Shown here: positions 1 through 5,160 of the stretch, one piece after another
Layout of the letters: each line of letters opens with the position of its first letter
Position numbering within the stretch: the stretch's first letter is position 1
Origin: a virus
Taxonomy: Duplodnaviria > Heunggongvirae > Uroviricota > Caudoviricetes
Direction: 5' to 3' (one strand)
Length of the DNA stretch: 5,160 nt
Virus record (IMG/VR): IMGVR_UViG_2778261666_000002
Coordinates: 1 to 5,160 of that record
Notes under the pieces: generated by a model
The model's input: only the letters and a program-made list of their open reading frames with translations
Told to the model about the DNA's origin: nothing
Databases searched by the model: none
Made by a program: the position numbers and the translations under genes

Positions 1-325
1 AGTCCCAGCAAATGTTTGTCCCGTTATCGTTCAGGTTAAGGCGCGCCATTGCGTTACCTGGACTGTCTATCCATTTTTTGAGGTATAGTTCGCAATACGC
101 ATCCTCAACACCTGCTGTCCTGTGAGTTGAGCGGAGTTTTCTCCCAAATATAGCTCCGCTAGTTGGCAATACCTGCTGATACCATGAAGCAGACCAGTCA
201 CCAACGATTTCATCTTTGCTGTCTACATATAATTTTGTTGCGTAGCTTCCTTGATCGTTTTTTAATTTGCTAACGTCGGATTTTAGCGTTTTGATGTCAT
301 CAGGAATTACTGTCGATGTAGCCAT
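1..325 (-). CDS. Hypothetical protein, N-terminal 108 codons only (3' end beyond window start); unknown function
   Basis: ATG at 325..323 preceded by GAGGAAG (the orf93 stop TGA 337..335 lies inside this SD; 9-nt spacing). Hand translation MATSTVIPDDIKTLKSDVSKLKNDQGSYATKLYVDSKDEIVGDWSASWYQQVLPTSGAIFGRKLRSTHRTAGVEDAYCELYLKKWIDSPGNAMARLNLNDNGTNICWD has no stop down to position 1. Absent from the ORF track only because it has no in-window stop. Confidence 0.5.
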   Translation of the reverse strand, partial: MATSTVIPDDIKTLKSDVSKLKNDQGSYATKLYVDSKDEIVGDWSASWYQQVLPTSGAIFGRKLRSTHRTAGVEDAYCELYLKKWIDSPGNAMARLNLNDNGTNICWD

Positions 326-334
326 TTTTCTTCC

Positions 335-616
335 TCACATCCAGCCACGAAGTTGATGCTCAACAGCAACCACGTATTCATCGAATAATGACGATATTTG
401 CGAATCATTAATGATGCGCACGTTTACAAAATATCCGTCTTCCTTAACACATACCGGTTCGCCATCTTCAGTCAGTTCTCCGGTTTCTTTGTACACGTTA
501 CCTATCACGTCAATAAGAATATCATCCTGCATCGACTCGTCATCATAATAGCCAATACTCTCCATAAAGGCCGAAAAGTCGGCCCTGTCGGCAAATTTGA
601 GTGTTAAATCTTTCAT
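335..616 (-). CDS. Hypothetical small acidic protein (93 aa), start overlapping the stf stop; possible tail-fibre accessory or chaperone, function unknown
   Basis: ATG 616..614 overlaps stf TAA 618..616 (TAATG). GGGGGAG lies about 8 nt upstream. About 21 Asp/Glu against about 7 Lys/Arg. No similarity I can recognise to the lambda Tfa / T4 gp38 family. The only competing ORF is a shorter antisense one. Confidence 0.6.
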   Translation of the reverse strand: MKDLTLKFADRADFSAFMESIGYYDDESMQDDILIDVIGNVYKETGELTEDGEPVCVKEDGYFVNVRIINDSQISSLFDEYVVAVEHQLRGWM

Positions 617-2991
617 TAGATTGACTCCCCCACCTGAGCATCAGTCAATGCCTTGTGCCATATTCTGAAATTCCTGACATGACCAAATAAATGACGTAAC
701 CCGGCTGTAGTCTGGCCTCCAATACGGATAATTGCAGTGTTCTGAATATAGGACCATGTGGTTTTTGTTTCGCTGGATATACGCCCGTTACTTACTGAGC
801 ACGTAGACTGATCTGACTTTACACGCATCCCCATAACCATTTTTTCAAGCAATGCGTTTTCGTTTACCCGTCTGTTAGCTCCTCCAATATCGCAATAAGG
901 AAATCCGTCGTAATCTGTTGAACGACCGAAGCCAAGAATAATAGCCGCTCCGGTTTGATGACCGCCGGTATCAAAAACACGTGGCGCTGCATTTGGCGTT
1001 TTATACCAGTTCTTATGTACCTCACAAAGAACCGTAAAAGGAAGATTATAAAGATTATTCTTAATTGGAACTGTAACTATATCGCTTGCGCGGGTCGCCG
1101 CCGTCGTTCCTGATATAATAAAAGATGATACACAAGGCCCATTTTCTACTTGTGGGGTGGCCAGATAAATATAGTCACCAGATACGGTTGCCCCGCCCTG
1201 CTTAGGAGAATACTGTATCTGAGAACCTATTTTTAACTCCCCATCAATTGCCTGAATTGTTGCCTCTGCAAAAATCCATCCGGTAGCTTCGTCCTTTCTG
1301 ACTCTCGCTGTAATCCTTGAGGCAGCGCCGCCTGTCATATTAATTTCAAGCGTTTGTGTATCAATATATGCATCACCAAGAAAAGTTGTTGCGCTACCGT
1401 CATATTTATCAAACCGGATACGCAACCTTACCTGCAGTTCTGTTTTAAAACGACATGAGGTTGTCACGTATTTATTATCGCCTGAGACATCAACTGACTT
1501 TGTTGCAGCAATTGATGCCATATTAATGGCTGAGGTTTGCCCAATCAGAGAATCGTTACAGACAAACTTTCCATAGGTAAAACCAAAACTATCCGTCCCG
1601 GTTTCGGGAACATCCATATTTGACGATCGCCCCCAACTGGCAGGGTTTTCCGAATTGAGCATGTAGTTCGTTCTTTGCCCCTCAATAAGCAGGCCATCAC
1701 GTTCAAACCGTGGCTCGTCAATGGCAGCCTCTGTCAGCACACCAGATTTATTAATATAGGTTGCTTTCGATGCGCGTTTAAACTTTACAACCTTATCGCC
1801 AGGCATCGTTATTTCATCATCACCAATAACAATCTTTTTATATGACGGCGAAAAGCCCGTAATCATATCCAGCGAATCGTTAAACGGTATCCACACATCG
1901 GGAAGCGGCTGCAAAACTTGTTTATACGGCTCCGCAGCCTGGCTTGCATACTCTCTGGCTGCGTCTTCACTTTCTTTAGCTGCCGTCTGGCTTGCAGCGG
2001 ATGCTTTCGCCGAGTTCGCAGCCGCTGTTTCGCTTGTCTTTGCATTGGTTTCACTGGTTTTTGCTGCTTTTTGACTGTTGGCTGATGCAGTGGCAGAAGC
2101 CGCCGCCGCGCTTGCAGAACCAGCTGCGGCACTCTCGCTTTGGGCCGCTGCATCCTGACTGTTTTTCGCCGCAGTTTCGCTGGCTTTGGCATTCGTTTCG
2201 CTGGTCTTCGCTGCCGTCTGGCTGGACTTTGCGTTAGTTTCGCTCGTCTTCGCTGCTTTCTGGCTGTTAGCCGCAGCAGTTGCTGAGCCAGCAGCTGAAG
2301 TCGCAGAACCGGCTGCCGCGCTCTCGCTTTGGGCTGCTGCAGCCTGGCTGTTTTTTGCCGCAGTTTCACTGGCTTTGGCATTCGTTTCGCTGGTTTTCGC
2401 TGCCGTCTGGCTGGACTTTGCGTTAGTTTCACTCGTCTTTGCGGCTGTCTCGCTATTTTTCGCGTTGGTTTCTGATTTTTTGGCTGCTGTCGCGGAGTTT
2501 GCCGATGCAGTCTGTGAGGTCGCTGCCGCCTGTGCGCTGTTAGCTGCATTCGTTTCTGAGGTTTTCGCCGCGTTCTTCGATGATGCCGCTGCAGTTTCGG
2601 ATTTCTTTGCCGCCGCTGCGCTCTGAGAGGCGGCTTCGGCGTTGCGTGCCGCTTCTTCCACCATTTCCTCAAAACGGCGCAATGCCTCCGGCATGACATC
2701 ATCTTCCGTCATGGCACCGAGAAAATCATTCAGCGTACCTGGTCTGGAACCTTCATAGACGGTAATGGTCCCGGCATGTGAAGGCGGAAAACCTTCAACC
2801 AGCAGGGTGACGCTGTACTGGCCATACTCAACATCCATGCTGTAACGTCCGGCTTCATCCGGATTTTCAGAAGCCACCGTGTTCACCAGTACCGTGGTGC
2901 TGTTACGCTTTGCCTTCAGTTGAATAGTGCAGTTCTGTATTGGTTTTCCCGCACCATCTTTCAGCACACCTGAGATTTTTACTGCTGCCAT
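616..2991 (-). CDS. stf: Side tail fibre protein: lambda-Stf-like N-terminal domain, A/S/T/K-rich heptad-repeat shaft, C-terminal LamG/concanavalin-like jelly-roll (putative receptor-binding) domain
   Basis: N-terminus MAAVKISGVLKDGAGKPIQNCTIQLKAKRNSTTV…GRYSMDVEYGQYSV…GFPPSHAGTITVYE matches the lambda Stf N-terminus as recalled. Likely start is ATG 2991..2989, preceded by GGAG (TTTTTTGTGGAGTGGATATG); the ORF track's GTG at 2997 sits inside that SD. Stop TAA at 618..616. C-terminal end …IRIGGQTTAGLRHLFGHVRNFRIWHKALTDAQVGESI resembles the conserved LamG_3 terminal motif. Confidence 0.85.
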   Translation of the reverse strand: MAAVKISGVLKDGAGKPIQNCTIQLKAKRNSTTVLVNTVASENPDEAGRYSMDVEYGQYSVTLLVEGFPPSHAGTITVYEGSRPGTLNDFLGAMTEDDVMPEALRRFEEMVEEAARNAEAASQSAAAAKKSETAAASSKNAAKTSETNAANSAQAAATSQTASANSATAAKKSETNAKNSETAAKTSETNAKSSQTAAKTSETNAKASETAAKNSQAAAAQSESAAAGSATSAAGSATAAANSQKAAKTSETNAKSSQTAAKTSETNAKASETAAKNSQDAAAQSESAAAGSASAAAASATASANSQKAAKTSETNAKTSETAAANSAKASAASQTAAKESEDAAREYASQAAEPYKQVLQPLPDVWIPFNDSLDMITGFSPSYKKIVIGDDEITMPGDKVVKFKRASKATYINKSGVLTEAAIDEPRFERDGLLIEGQRTNYMLNSENPASWGRSSNMDVPETGTDSFGFTYGKFVCNDSLIGQTSAINMASIAATKSVDVSGDNKYVTTSCRFKTELQVRLRIRFDKYDGSATTFLGDAYIDTQTLEINMTGGAASRITARVRKDEATGWIFAEATIQAIDGELKIGSQIQYSPKQGGATVSGDYIYLATPQVENGPCVSSFIISGTTAATRASDIVTVPIKNNLYNLPFTVLCEVHKNWYKTPNAAPRVFDTGGHQTGAAIILGFGRSTDYDGFPYCDIGGANRRVNENALLEKMVMGMRVKSDQSTCSVSNGRISSETKTTWSYIQNTAIIRIGGQTTAGLRHLFGHVRNFRIWHKALTDAQVGESI
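2068..2445 (-). repeat. Two tandem 189-bp units (63 codons each) inside the stf shaft-coding region, embedded in a wider heptad-periodic region (about 1930-2650)
   Basis: 2211-2250 and 2400-2439 are near-identical at a 189-bp offset. Protein copies are residues 185-247 and 248-310 (AAKTSETNAKSSQTAAKTSETNAKASETAAKNSQ… twice), followed by a degenerate partial third copy. Confidence 0.85.
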
Positions 2992-3001
2992 ATCCACTCC
3001 A

Positions 3002-3029
3002 CAAAAAAGCCCGCCAGAATCTGCGGGCT
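3002..3029 (-). terminator. Putative rho-independent terminator after lom (minus-strand RNA: AGCCCGC-agauucug-GCGGGCU followed by UUUUUUGU), overlapping the stf ribosome-binding region
   Basis: 7-bp inverted repeat at + strand 3008-3014 / 3023-3029 with an 8-nt loop. A6 run at 3003-3008 gives a U-tract on the minus strand only. Confidence 0.55.
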
Positions 3030-3055
3030 GTCATAACACTGTGTTACCTGGCTAA

Positions 3056-3655
3056 TCAGAATTTATAACCGACACCCACGATGAAACCGTCAGTGCGCCA
3101 GTCGCCACTGCCGGAACCTTCATAAGCAATATCAATGGCCACGGATTCGGTCGGGTTAAACTGCACGCCAGCCCCCCACGCCAGAGACGTGTTGCTGTGG
3201 CGACCGCCATCACTCCCGGTCAGCACATCGTGCGTTTTCCCCTTGCTGTCAGTTACGCGGAGATAATCCCCGGAGAACGTCGAAACACGGCTGCAAGCCA
3301 CACCTGCCATCGCATAAGCACTGAACCATTCATTCACGCGCACAGACGGCCCCGCCATCATGCTGAACCAGCGGTTACGCACTGAATCTTCATGCCAGCG
3401 GGTATCGCTGTAATGCGTTTTTTGCTCATCTTTGGCATTGGCATAACTGAATGACGTCACCAGCCCCAGCGTGTCCATAAATTCATAACGGTATTTCACG
3501 TTAATGCCCTTCAGGTCATCACTGCCTGGCATATCAGTATGGGTCTGAAGATACCCGGCGCTTAGTGTGGACTGATGCTCTGCTGCGCTCGCTGGCGTAC
3601 CAGCGGCAACCAGCCAGACTACTGCGGACAGAATAACAGCACATAATTTACGCAT
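3056..3655 (-). CDS. lom: Lom/Ail/PagC/OmpX-family outer-membrane beta-barrel protein (lambda Lom homologue), 199 aa
   Basis: N-terminal signal peptide MRKLCAVILSAVVWLVAAGTPASA^AE (A-x-A cleavage site). Internal GINVKYRYE and SAYAMAGVA motifs and C-terminal IAYEGSGSGDWRTDGFIVGVGYKF with terminal Phe, matching lambda Lom as I recall it. Position directly after J is the canonical lom position. Confidence 0.93.
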   Translation of the reverse strand: MRKLCAVILSAVVWLVAAGTPASAAEHQSTLSAGYLQTHTDMPGSDDLKGINVKYRYEFMDTLGLVTSFSYANAKDEQKTHYSDTRWHEDSVRNRWFSMMAGPSVRVNEWFSAYAMAGVACSRVSTFSGDYLRVTDSKGKTHDVLTGSDGGRHSNTSLAWGAGVQFNPTESVAIDIAYEGSGSGDWRTDGFIVGVGYKF

Positions 3656-3660
3656 AATTA

Positions 3661-3666
3661 CCTCTC
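3661..3666 (-). promoter_or_regulatory. Shine-Dalgarno GAGAGG, 5 nt upstream of the lom ATG
   Basis: Reverse complement of 3656-3670 is AAGCGAGAGGTAATT, immediately followed by ATG (3655..3653). Confidence 0.6.
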
Positions 3667-3674
3667 GCTTTTCT

Positions 3675-3704
3675 GCAATAAAAAAGGCGTCATTTCTGAC
3701 GCCC
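3675..3704 (-). terminator. Putative rho-independent terminator directly after the J stop (minus-strand RNA: GGCGUCA-gaaa-UGACGCC followed by UUUUUUAUU)
   Basis: Perfect 7-bp inverted repeat at + strand 3686-3692 / 3697-3703 with a 4-nt loop. A-run at 3681-3685 on the + strand gives a U-tract only for minus-strand transcription. Confidence 0.6.
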
Positions 3705-3722
3705 GTATTGGGGTTATAAAAT

Positions 3723-5160
3723 TCAGCTGATACTGATGCCTGCGGTGGCTTTCTTCATCACCACAACCAGCAAATCGCTGATACTTGCTGTGGGATACCA
3801 GTCATTTACCAGCCATGCTGACACCGAAAACTCCAGCGTCATGTGACCGTGACCGGCAGGCATATCAATAACGCCACTGTAAATCAGCGTATTATCCAGC
3901 GCGGTACGGTTATAAATTTCAGCACCGTTTTTCCGCACTATCAGACGGCATGAGGAGTAAATATCAGTATGCTCTCTCTCATGTTTAGCGCCGCTGAATG
4001 CCACCGCCGGAATAACAATCTGCCGGTCAAACGGCTGATCGTCATAAATCCTGACGGTAATGGTCCCTGATGGCCACCGTTCCGGTGCACGGGAGTCCCG
4101 GGGGAAAGCTTTGCCCACTGTTTTAACGAGATCGCCTTCAATCTGGTTCGCGGACAGTTTTCCCAGAACCCGGCAGTTCTCGTTAATCGTGACGTTGTTG
4201 AGCGACCCGGAGTTCGCATTCACGTTACCGCTGATATCGGCATTTTTCGCCGTCAGCCGCCCGTCCGGTGTCAGGGAAAATGCCGGAGGATTACCGCCGC
4301 TGGTAATGGTGGGAGCCGTCAGATATTTCAGGAACACTTCGTTCATGAATATCTGATCGCCCTGACCAACAAACATCGGCCTTGTGTTGCCATTCGCAGG
4401 ATTAACCATCGCAATCCTGTCCGCCGCCAGCAGCACCTGACTCTGCATACCGTCAGGAGTATTCTCAATACCGGCACCAATACCCGCGATATAAAGGCGT
4501 CCGTCCTGCATCTGCTGCAGCTTCACAGCCCACATGCTGTTCAGGTTATTATTTGTATCAACCTGAACCTTCTGTATCTGCTGAATTGCCGCACTCTGGT
4601 CTTCCAGTTTCTTATTGACGGTCTGCGTGATTTCATTGCTGACATCCGTAATGGACGTCCTGATTTCAGCCAGGTCAGGCGCAAGCTGACCGTTATCAAT
4701 CTGCGTCCACAGCTCCTGAGCCAGATGGCTTTTCCCTATCTCGCCTTTGAAAAAATCCAGATAGCCGGATGCATCATCACTCGGCTGGCCAACAGCCTCC
4801 ACAAATGCCGATTTGCCAACGGTGTTCACACTGCGGATGTAAAAATAATAATCATGGCCCGGTTTGATATTGATACTGGCGGCTATCCAGTACAGCGCCG
4901 TACCAAGATAGCGGGCTGTGGTTTCAACCTGCCTGATATCGGTAATCCGCTTTTCCGAGAACCAGAACTCAAACTGTACCGTCGGGTCATAAACCGCAAG
5001 ATGCGGCGTGGCGGTTATCTGAAAATAGCCCGGCGTCAGCTCAATCCTCGACGGTGCTGCCGGTGCGGCAATCCGGAACGATACCGACGCCGGATCGCCC
5101 TGCTGCCCCCACGCATTTACCGCCCGGACTGTCAGCCTGTAGTTCCCCAGCGCCAGTTGC
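3723..5160 (-). CDS. J: Host-specificity / central tail fibre protein J, C-terminal about 479 codons; 5' end lies beyond the window. TGA stop at 3725..3723.
   Basis: Hand translation of the minus-strand frame from 5159 down to 3723 is uninterrupted (…[41 protein letters not shown]…[23 protein letters not shown]…[31 protein letters not shown]…). It matches lambda J as I recall it, including the MPAG…KK…GISI-type C-terminus. The ORF track's 368-aa call simply begins at the first in-frame GTG (4829); the frame stays open upstream of it. Confidence 0.9.

Follow-up and report, generated by a model that had tools for sequence, protein, structure and literature searches.

Among described systems, the side tail fibre (Stf) of Ur-lambda (PDB 9e7m / 9mgh; PMC12617516) is one of the closest to the gene examined here. 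Each lambda side fibre contains three copies of gpStf, wherein a collar domain attaches the fibre to the tail tip and residues 102-393 form the proximal coiled coil (PMC12617516). The stretch of DNA that we analysed, hereafter the window, comprises 5,160 nucleotides of a tailed phage (IMG/VR record IMGVR_UViG_2778261666_000002, positions 1 to 5,160), and its stf gene resembles that of Ur-lambda in its collar domain, in its position after J and lom, and in a rod composed of x-x-S-x-x-x-A heptads. In contrast, the lambda rod lacks the 189-bp duplication that is the subject of this report (the best 126-nt identity at an offset of 189 is 0.49), and the C-terminal receptor-binding half of the lambda protein is unrelated. 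Literature on this duplication, or on heptad variation in Stf, was limited to the general description of the lambda Stf coiled coil. We conclude, with a probability of roughly 0.8, that the window carries an ancient in-frame duplication of nine heptads, which acts as a tolerated rod-length module and is occasionally lost by recombination.

The stf gene and its heptad rod

The stf gene occupies positions 616-2997 on the minus strand and was identified as a lambda-type side tail fibre gene from the ORF list, from a match of aa 5-134 of its product to Pfam PF08400 ('prophage tail fibre N-terminal', E=7.3e-67), and from phrog_1419, which aligned with the product from end to end. The product has 793 aa when counted, as in the ORF list, from the GTG at 2997. 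The true start is likely the ATG at 2991 (791 aa), judging from homologue annotations, which begin at MAAVK. Upstream on the same strand, the ORF list and Pfam place the C-terminal domains of J and an Ail/Lom protein, and the order J, lom, stf also occurs in E. coli A0 34/86 and in lambda. On the other side, where lambda has the orf-194 assembly gene, the window has a 93-aa ORF (335-616, minus strand) whose first nucleotide is also the last of the stf stop codon. This ORF matches phrog_1361 (function unknown) and returned no match in a Pfam search; a lambda-style tail fibre assembly gene of the orf-194 type was not found directly downstream of stf.

Three parts of the protein can be distinguished, all encoded on the minus strand. 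The N-terminal collar domain (aa 5-97, positions 2707-2985) was delimited by a phmmer match to Ur-lambda Stf chain 9e7m (E=7.6e-49), and the alpha-helical heptad rod (aa 104-354, positions 1936-2688) by a heptad table and AlphaFold2 helices. The C-terminal receptor-binding module (aa 362-793, positions 616-1914) was delimited by the partial match of phage vB_EcoS_ESCO3, which aligns with window positions 616-1911 only, at 97%. As this match and the C-terminal types discussed below indicate, the module is swapped as a cassette and not together with the rod.

Beginning at aa 124, the rod contains 33 heptads without interruption, with Ser at position 3 in 32 of 33 and Ala at position 7 in 30 of 33. 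Its core is thus made of Ser/Ala and not of Leu/Ile, and the canonical heptad periodicity of coiled coils is present. AlphaFold2 predicted helices at aa 104-228 and 237-354, in a monomer model of modest confidence (mean pLDDT 57; helices 70-78). The hairpin that this model forms at a break spanning aa 229-236 is probably an artefact of modelling a monomer. For lambda Stf, a folded-back prediction of the same kind was reported to be inconsistent with cryo-ET (PMC12617516), and by analogy with this homologue the rod encoded in the window would be trimeric.

A repeat of nine heptads and the overlapping reading frames

Within the rod, two 63-codon units of nine heptads each lie side by side on the minus strand, namely copy 1 at 2251-2439 (aa 187-249) and copy 2 at 2062-2250 (aa 250-312), with boundaries set by repeat detection and by the codon and heptad register. 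Tandem Repeats Finder reported a period of 189 with 1.8 copies and 90% matches (score 584) at 2114-2454, and a second repeat search recovered one 189-nt pair with a spacing of 189. The best 126-nt block at an offset of 189 has an identity of 0.93, which is far above the heptad background, since other multiples of 21 nt give at most 0.67. The adjacent 63-codon repeat proposed in an earlier, sequence-only reading of this DNA therefore exists. The interval given there, 2068-2445, is the same array displaced by two codons and still in frame, and the equation of 63 residues with nine heptads agrees with the heptad register.

That reading had also called the repeat near-perfect, with near-identity at first and divergence after. 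The gradient is indeed present: in gene orientation, the first 126 nt are identical at 117 of 126 positions (93%) and the last 63 nt at 44 of 63 (70%). The term 'near-perfect' was an overstatement, given that the copies share 161 of 189 nt (85%) overall and 58 of 63 aa. Between the high-identity cores, at 2314-2439 in copy 1 and 2125-2250 in copy 2 (both minus strand), there are eight synonymous codon changes and one that is non-synonymous. The split between 93% and 70% is not explained by one simple duplication without later conversion or replacement. A later event may have homogenised the first 126 nt; alternatively, mosaic exchange may have replaced the last 63 nt.

This two-tier divergence, together with saturated synonymous sites in the tail and a background heptad identity that reaches 73% for 63-nt blocks, would also suit a history in which no duplication changed the length of the gene. 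A 126-nt tract would instead have been gene-converted onto an existing heptad stretch 189 nt away, the tails being merely heptad-similar. However, the tail match, though weak, still exceeds all but 0.9% of the comparisons made in heptad register, the last heptad, ANSQKAA, has the same protein sequence in both copies, and the motif KTSETNA follows each unit. Furthermore, exactly one core and one tail are missing from the single-copy alleles described below, and the rods of lambda and phage 4C10, which belong to the same family, are shorter and without the repeat. We therefore regard conversion onto an existing stretch as quite unlikely. In keeping with an in-frame tandem duplication, the period is constant, the identity is above background, and there are relatives that are shorter by one unit. 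Next to copy 2, at 2020-2061 (minus strand), are two heptads, KTSETNA KTSETAA, with 71% nucleotide identity to the unit start and with the motif KTSETNA K(T/S)S; they constitute a direct repeat at the flank or, alternatively, an incomplete third copy.

Two long ORFs overlap the rod: a 279-aa ORF in the +1 frame of stf that is co-extensive with the heptads (1863-2702, minus strand), and a 146-aa antisense ORF inside them (2186-2626, plus strand). Both had been dismissed as spurious products of the repeat. They are spurious, but the 189-bp repeat is not their cause. When the codons of the rod were shuffled (500 shuffles), the +1 frame had 0 stops versus 0 observed, and the antisense frame had 2.8 versus 3. 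Without a second copy, the +1 frame remains open too, over 218 codons in a single-copy allele and over 136 codons in a duplication-free rod. Both ORFs are artefacts of the codon composition of the rod, to which the duplication merely adds 63 codons.

One might nevertheless propose that these ORFs are real overlapping genes for which the duplication has been kept, because they are long and because a RefSeq record of CFT073 lists the antisense ORF as a hypothetical protein, even with an open stf frame at that place; the lambda counterpart, orf206b, is annotated as well. We find this proposal extremely improbable, given that the stop counts in codon-shuffled rods are about equal to those observed, that stf codons vary mostly at their third position (46 of 62 variable sites), and that the translations are of low complexity, being rich in Arg/Gln/Pro or in Ala/Phe/Val/Leu.

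Copy number among relatives and the age of the copies

Of 5,426 complete E. coli genomes, about 1,000 contain a two-copy rod of this length, and the 29 full-coverage rows that were sampled from these all had the same length. Phages 2G7b, HannyBb, Tritos, PhiR63_1, and ev207 carry the two-copy rod too. The near-identical stf genes of these phages and of the approximately 1,000 E. coli prophages (phrog_1419; 91-98% nt) share the rod length of the window and differ from it by point substitutions only. No record identical to the window allele was present among those searched, the top match being 98.2%.

Other relatives carry a single copy. Their alleles keep an intact CDS and fall short of the two-copy length by exactly 63 aa (189 bp), and they were found in phage IdasGreatGrand, in at least four complete genomes (E. 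coli AVS0655, MSB1_4I, CB209, and FFFEB2), and in 48 protein clusters, one of which has 219 members. In IdasGreatGrand, AVS0655, MSB1_4I, and cluster P0145, the gene, its flanks, and the heptad register are the same as in the window, and the unit that is present is copy-2-like from nt 83 on. Among 15 fixed diagnostic sites (nt 83-188), the units of the first three match copy 2 at 13 to 15. The expectation that fibre length varies among relatives through this repeat is thus borne out, and the comparison of homologues reveals both one-copy and two-copy alleles rather than an identical copy number in all.

Between single-copy and two-copy alleles, the 5′ flanks have dS values of 0.05-0.13. Because these values are far below the dS between paralogous copies given in the next paragraph, the single-copy alleles represent secondary losses, and on the same ground we rejected the idea that they are ancestral relics. 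Additional whole-heptad variants (-7, -14, -28, and -49 aa) have their junctions at repeated heptad motifs. A few alleles are off by non-heptad amounts (-4, -12, -16, -30, and -41 aa), and in these either the register is broken or the assemblies contain errors.

Paralogous copies differ at 13-19 of 147 nt and orthologous copies at 1-9 of 147, with dS values of 0.79-0.86 and 0.10-0.20, respectively, and with dN of 0.036-0.05. In a DNA-level comparison of six two-copy alleles of equal length, each copy was orthologous to its counterpart without exception. Since the dS between paralogues greatly exceeds that between orthologues, the duplication is old and the copies have been evolving separately, both under purifying selection since the duplication. 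Concerted evolution, by which gene conversion would keep the copies alike, was rejected because paralogues are far more diverged than orthologues; the 93% core leaves room for an older conversion event.

These comparisons also bear on whether the repeat is a hypervariable contingency locus, at which frequent slippage or recombination would adaptively switch fibre length within lineages. Length variants do exist, both as one versus two copies and as whole-heptad indels, and the single-copy alleles occupy different flank backgrounds, suggesting recurrent events. However, the copies are just 85% identical, with dS of 0.8-0.9, and orthologous copies are distinct in each of the six alleles mentioned above. 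The uniform length of the 29 sampled rows and the failure of searches to find more than two copies likewise argue against such switching, which we consider very unlikely. The hallmarks of contingency loci, which are many near-identical copies and two-way copy-number change among close relatives, are absent here. The locus is stable, with occasional loss of a unit, and is not hypervariable.

To look for a three-copy allele, synthetic queries with three units were compared, as DNA, with the 5,426 complete E. coli genomes and, as protein, with 5.8 billion proteins; in both searches, two-copy alleles alone were returned. One hit with 209 additional bp (H181) was excluded, being a frameshifted pseudogene from an assembly rich in errors. 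The absence of three-copy alleles from these results counts against unequal exchange, which is expected to yield expansions as well as deletions.

Rod length and the proposed course of gain and loss

The duplication would add ~9 nm of rod (63 x ~0.148 nm), thereby extending it from ~28 to ~37 nm, and is predicted to leave the coiled-coil register undisturbed. With its register undisturbed, the added segment would act as a tolerated length module and not as a functional site, and we infer that rod length is nearly neutral. Alternatively, selection might adjust rod length to the receptor-binding module or to the surface of the host, with its capsule or LPS of a given depth, such that one-copy and two-copy alleles mark distinct ecotypes. 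Rods of either length are encoded by intact genes and have been retained in viable phage isolates, and a dN/dS of ~0.04 indicates that both copies are constrained. Yet C-terminal type 0 is combined with 37 two-copy and 22 one-copy rods, and type 1 with 4 and 16. Copy number and receptor-binding type were not linked, several C-terminal types carrying both rods, and selection for a fitting length is an unlikely explanation. It is likewise doubtful, and for now speculative, that selection acts on the unit of nine heptads as a quantum of length, wherein rods of ~28 and ~37 nm tune the reach beyond the central J fibre and recombinational switching fits that reach to capsule or LPS depth.

For the tolerated duplication that we favour, the most likely origin would be that two 'AAKTSETNAK' heptad motifs nine heptads apart underwent unequal homologous exchange. 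An exchange between motifs at this distance would account for a duplication that keeps both the reading frame and the heptad register exactly, and the two heptads at 2061-2020 are likely the substrate of the original event. Loss would proceed by copy-to-copy recombination within the first ~83 nt, where the copies are most alike, which would remove exactly one unit and leave viable single-copy fibres. The other whole-heptad variants could have arisen by exchange between shorter heptad motifs. As for a stimulator of recombination, no Chi site (GCTGGTGG) is present within the window.

The importance of these findings is limited, and the duplication with minority loss of one copy is ordinary evolution of a fibrous protein. 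The locus does provide a well-populated natural example of a phage coiled-coil fibre whose length shifts by whole heptads, apparently through recombination at its own motifs, with both rod lengths found in viable phages. For the engineering of chimeric lambda Stf proteins, the alleles suggest that the rod tolerates in-register removal of 63 residues (and 7 to 49 more). For annotation, the origin of the long spurious ORFs is explained, one of which has been annotated in RefSeq in place of the real gene.

A comparable case outside phages is the streptococcal M protein, an alpha-helical coiled-coil fibre in which in-frame repeats in multiples of the heptad are gained and lost by homologous recombination, thereby changing its length. 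The M-protein repeats are more numerous and more alike, and they vary frequently under immune selection. In contrast, the stf gene in the window has two old, diverged copies, one of which is rarely lost.

Tandem 63-codon units in the side tail fibre rod

The side tail fibre gene stf (616–2997, minus strand, 793 aa) carries, within the alpha-helical heptad stretch that forms its rod, two adjacent 189-bp units on the same strand, placed in codon register at 2439–2251 (copy 1, aa 187–249) and 2250–2062 (copy 2, aa 250–312). Tandem Repeats Finder reports the array at 2114–2454 (period 189, 1.8 copies, 90% matches, score 584), and the tandem repeat located at 2068–2445 by the sequence-only reading is the same array offset by two codons. 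The copies are alike at 161 of 189 nucleotides and 58 of 63 amino acids. Their core (the first 126 nt in gene orientation) is 93% alike, with eight synonymous changes and one replacement, and their tail (the last 63 nt) is 70% alike, which bears out the earlier description of near-identity followed by divergence. Identity of 126-nt blocks peaks at 0.93 for an offset of 189 and is at most 0.67 at all other multiples of 21 nt; therefore, the repeat is not heptad background. The 70% tail match ranks in the top 0.9% among 467 heptad-register comparisons, and two heptads past copy 2 (2061–2020, KTSETNA KTSETAA) are 71% similar to the unit start.

One unit is exactly nine heptads, as had also been claimed, within a rod of 33 uninterrupted heptads (aa 124–354) in which 32 of 33 have Ser at position 3 and 30 of 33 have Ala at position 7, giving small core residues a 3/4 spacing. 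With the standard coiled-coil rise of ∼0.148 nm per residue, one unit lengthens the ∼37-nm rod by about 9.3 nm. The AlphaFold2 monomer model predicts helix at aa 104–228 and 237–354 (pLDDT 70–78 within helices), and the break between them, like the hairpin it creates, is probably an artefact of modelling a monomer. The break is confined to glycine-containing heptads of copy 1 (window 2290–2313, aa 229–236, AGSATSAAG), which could instead mark a flexible point; at the equivalent heptads of copy 2 (AGSASAAAA), the long modeled helix is unbroken. A cryo-EM/cryo-ET study of Ur-lambda identified homologous residues 102–393 as the side fibre's proximal coiled coil, with three gpStf copies forming each side fibre (PMC12617516), and the rod examined here would likewise be trimeric. 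The heptad motif of the rod recurs, as AKTSEDNAKSSENAAKNSE and with a weak match (E = 0.003), at aa 129–175 of a phage 'depolymerase' chain (PDB 7lzj_A), near its N terminus. The solved 'depolymerase' chains 7vyv and 7vz3 likewise bear it near the N terminus, and thus the motif is shared with tailspike-type proteins.

Age of the duplication and changes in rod length

Between the window and six other two-copy alleles, copy 1 differs at 4–7 of 147 nt and copy 2 at 3–9 of 147, compared with 13–19 of 147 between the two copies inside every genome compared. Nei–Gojobori dS values are 0.79–0.86 for paralogues and 0.10–0.20 for orthologues (dN 0.036–0.05). Because paralogues have diverged further than orthologues, the duplication must have occurred before this rod type spread, and no ongoing conversion keeps the copies alike. 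Core dS is 0.38, whereas tail synonymous sites are saturated, a contrast that implies a later event, either core conversion or tail replacement. Other tail combinations are found in alleles such as PhiR47_1 and P0050. Megablast matches to other stf lineages stop within the rod (window ∼2102–2105, ∼2365, and ∼1911), which fits patchwise mosaic exchange. The rods of lambda and phage 4C10 share the heptad scaffold but lack the 189-bp repeat.

The sequence-only reading had also suggested that fibre length may vary among relatives. Single-copy and heptad-step alleles do exist, but the variation is modest in extent. When an 811-nt rod query was compared with 5,426 complete E. coli genomes, 1,002 had a place covering at least 80% of it; in an even sample, 29 of 29 full-coverage rows were exactly 811 nt. 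Within its PHROG family, the protein normally has two copies. Single-copy alleles, exactly 189 bp shorter with reading frames intact, occur in the viable phage IdasGreatGrand, in E. coli AVS0655 and MSB1_4I (coding sequences read), in E. coli CB209 and FFFEB2 (recognized from a 622-nt span), and in 48 protein clusters, of which one contains 219 sequences. Alleles shorter by 7 aa are present in at least nine genomes, and those shorter by 14, 28, and 49 aa have junctions at repeated AAKxSETxA motifs. A few singleton alleles have putative non-heptad lengths (−4, −12, −16, −30, and −41 aa; homologues P0043, P0044, P0128, P0059, and P0118) that would shift the coiled-coil register, and these may be stutters near rod ends or assembly errors. 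Synthetic three-copy queries, DNA or protein, found no three-copy alleles.

Some prophage copies of stf are decayed. E. coli EFF60 (L012) has an IS200 between lom and stf, together with a fragmented rod that is 84 bp shorter, and in E. coli SCU-306 (L010), stf is frameshifted. Draft-genome homologues (P0001–P0120) are mostly 'partial' proteins of 470–660 aa ending in the C-terminal half. The median number of stf places per genome is 2, with up to 13, and short-read assembly breaks are common in stf, presumably owing to its presence in several prophages of one genome.

Single-copy alleles might be taken for relics that predate the duplication. For the three checked as DNA, this is ruled out by the 5′ flanks, which differ from those of two-copy alleles by a dS of only 0.05–0.13, far below paralogue divergence, and these single-copy alleles are therefore secondary deletions. 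There are 15 fixed diagnostic sites between nt 83 and nt 188 of the unit, and each of the three alleles is copy-2-like at 13 to 15 of them; the first ∼83 nt hold no more than two or three differences between the copies. Such a copy-2-like unit is the product expected of exchange within those first ∼83 nt. Flank backgrounds differ among the three, MSB1_4I being nearest the two-copy PhiR63_1/ev207 type. This suggests that a unit was deleted more than once, although recombination in the flanks could give the same picture. Because the same C-terminal receptor-binding types are found with one-copy and with two-copy rods, copy number does not go with any one receptor module.

Gene context and alternative-frame ORFs

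The genes of the window, all encoded by the minus strand, make up the distal end of a lambdoid prophage tail module: J, represented by its C-terminal part (3723–4829, continuing off the window end), lom (3056–3655), stf, and a 93-aa ORF (335–616) whose ATG shares one base with the stf stop codon. The mechanical stf ORF starts at a GTG at 2997 (V-D-M-A-A-V-K), and annotated homologues begin two codons on, at an ATG (MAAVK, window 2991), giving 791 aa. Membership in the lambda Stf family rests on the N-terminal domain (PF08400, E = 7e-67) and gene position; the protein also matches the Ur-lambda Stf collar domain (solved structure 9e7m, E = 7.6e-49) and, end to end, phrog_1419. The top database match is an E. 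coli A0 34/86 prophage (98.2%), and the gene recurs at 96–97% in the isolated phages 2G7b, HannyBb, Tritos, and PhiR63_1. Compared with lambda, the C-terminal module differs and no recognizable tail fibre assembly gene lies downstream. The place of that gene (orf-194) is occupied by the 93-aa ORF, which has no Pfam family and corresponds to phrog_1361 (unknown function); given this position, it may encode a chaperone of another type than lambda's. The C-terminal receptor-binding half of stf (616–1911) and the 93-aa ORF form a cassette, bounded at the rod end (LQPLPDVWIPF), that is shared at 97% with phage vB_EcoS_ESCO3 and at 80–84% with phages VogelGryff, tunus, and tinuso. A record under the name 'Campylobacter phage C13' matches it at 80% too, which is surprising given the host.

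Two further ORFs overlap the rod, a 279-aa ORF (1863–2702, minus strand) in the +1 frame of stf that spans the whole rod (aa 96–377) and a 146-aa ORF (2186–2626, plus strand) antisense within it. Both had been ascribed to the repeat. The duplication does lengthen them, but they are by-products of the heptads' Ala/Ser/Thr/Lys/Glu codon set and are open without it. The +1 frame is free of stops both in the actual rod and in 500 codon shuffles, and remains open for 218 codons in a single-copy allele and 136 codons in the unduplicated 4C10 rod; the antisense frame has 3 stops versus 2.8 expected from shuffles. Six alleles of equal length vary at 62 sites, 46 of which are at stf codon position 3. 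In a CFT073 RefSeq record (L015:697–1137), a near-identical 146-aa antisense ORF is annotated as 'hypothetical protein WP_011076512.1', and stf is split into a 'partial' pseudogene and hypothetical proteins, although its frame is open across the whole fetched stretch. An analogous antisense orf206b is annotated within orf-401 of lambda (L014:1248–1868).

Proposed mechanism and comparison with known repeats

We propose, with a probability of roughly 0.8 for the mechanism as a whole, that the in-register duplication, which a coiled coil would tolerate, arose when two heptad motifs separated by nine heptads underwent unequal homologous exchange. Purifying selection would keep both copies as parts of a length-tolerant rod, whose length may be nearly neutral, and rare exchange between the copies would delete one unit.

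A literature search found no paper on this particular stf duplication, which is an ordinary internal duplication in a fibrous protein. Streptococcal M protein is a coiled-coil surface protein with size-variable repeats, and these resemble the stf repeat, although the stf case is much smaller and slower in scale.
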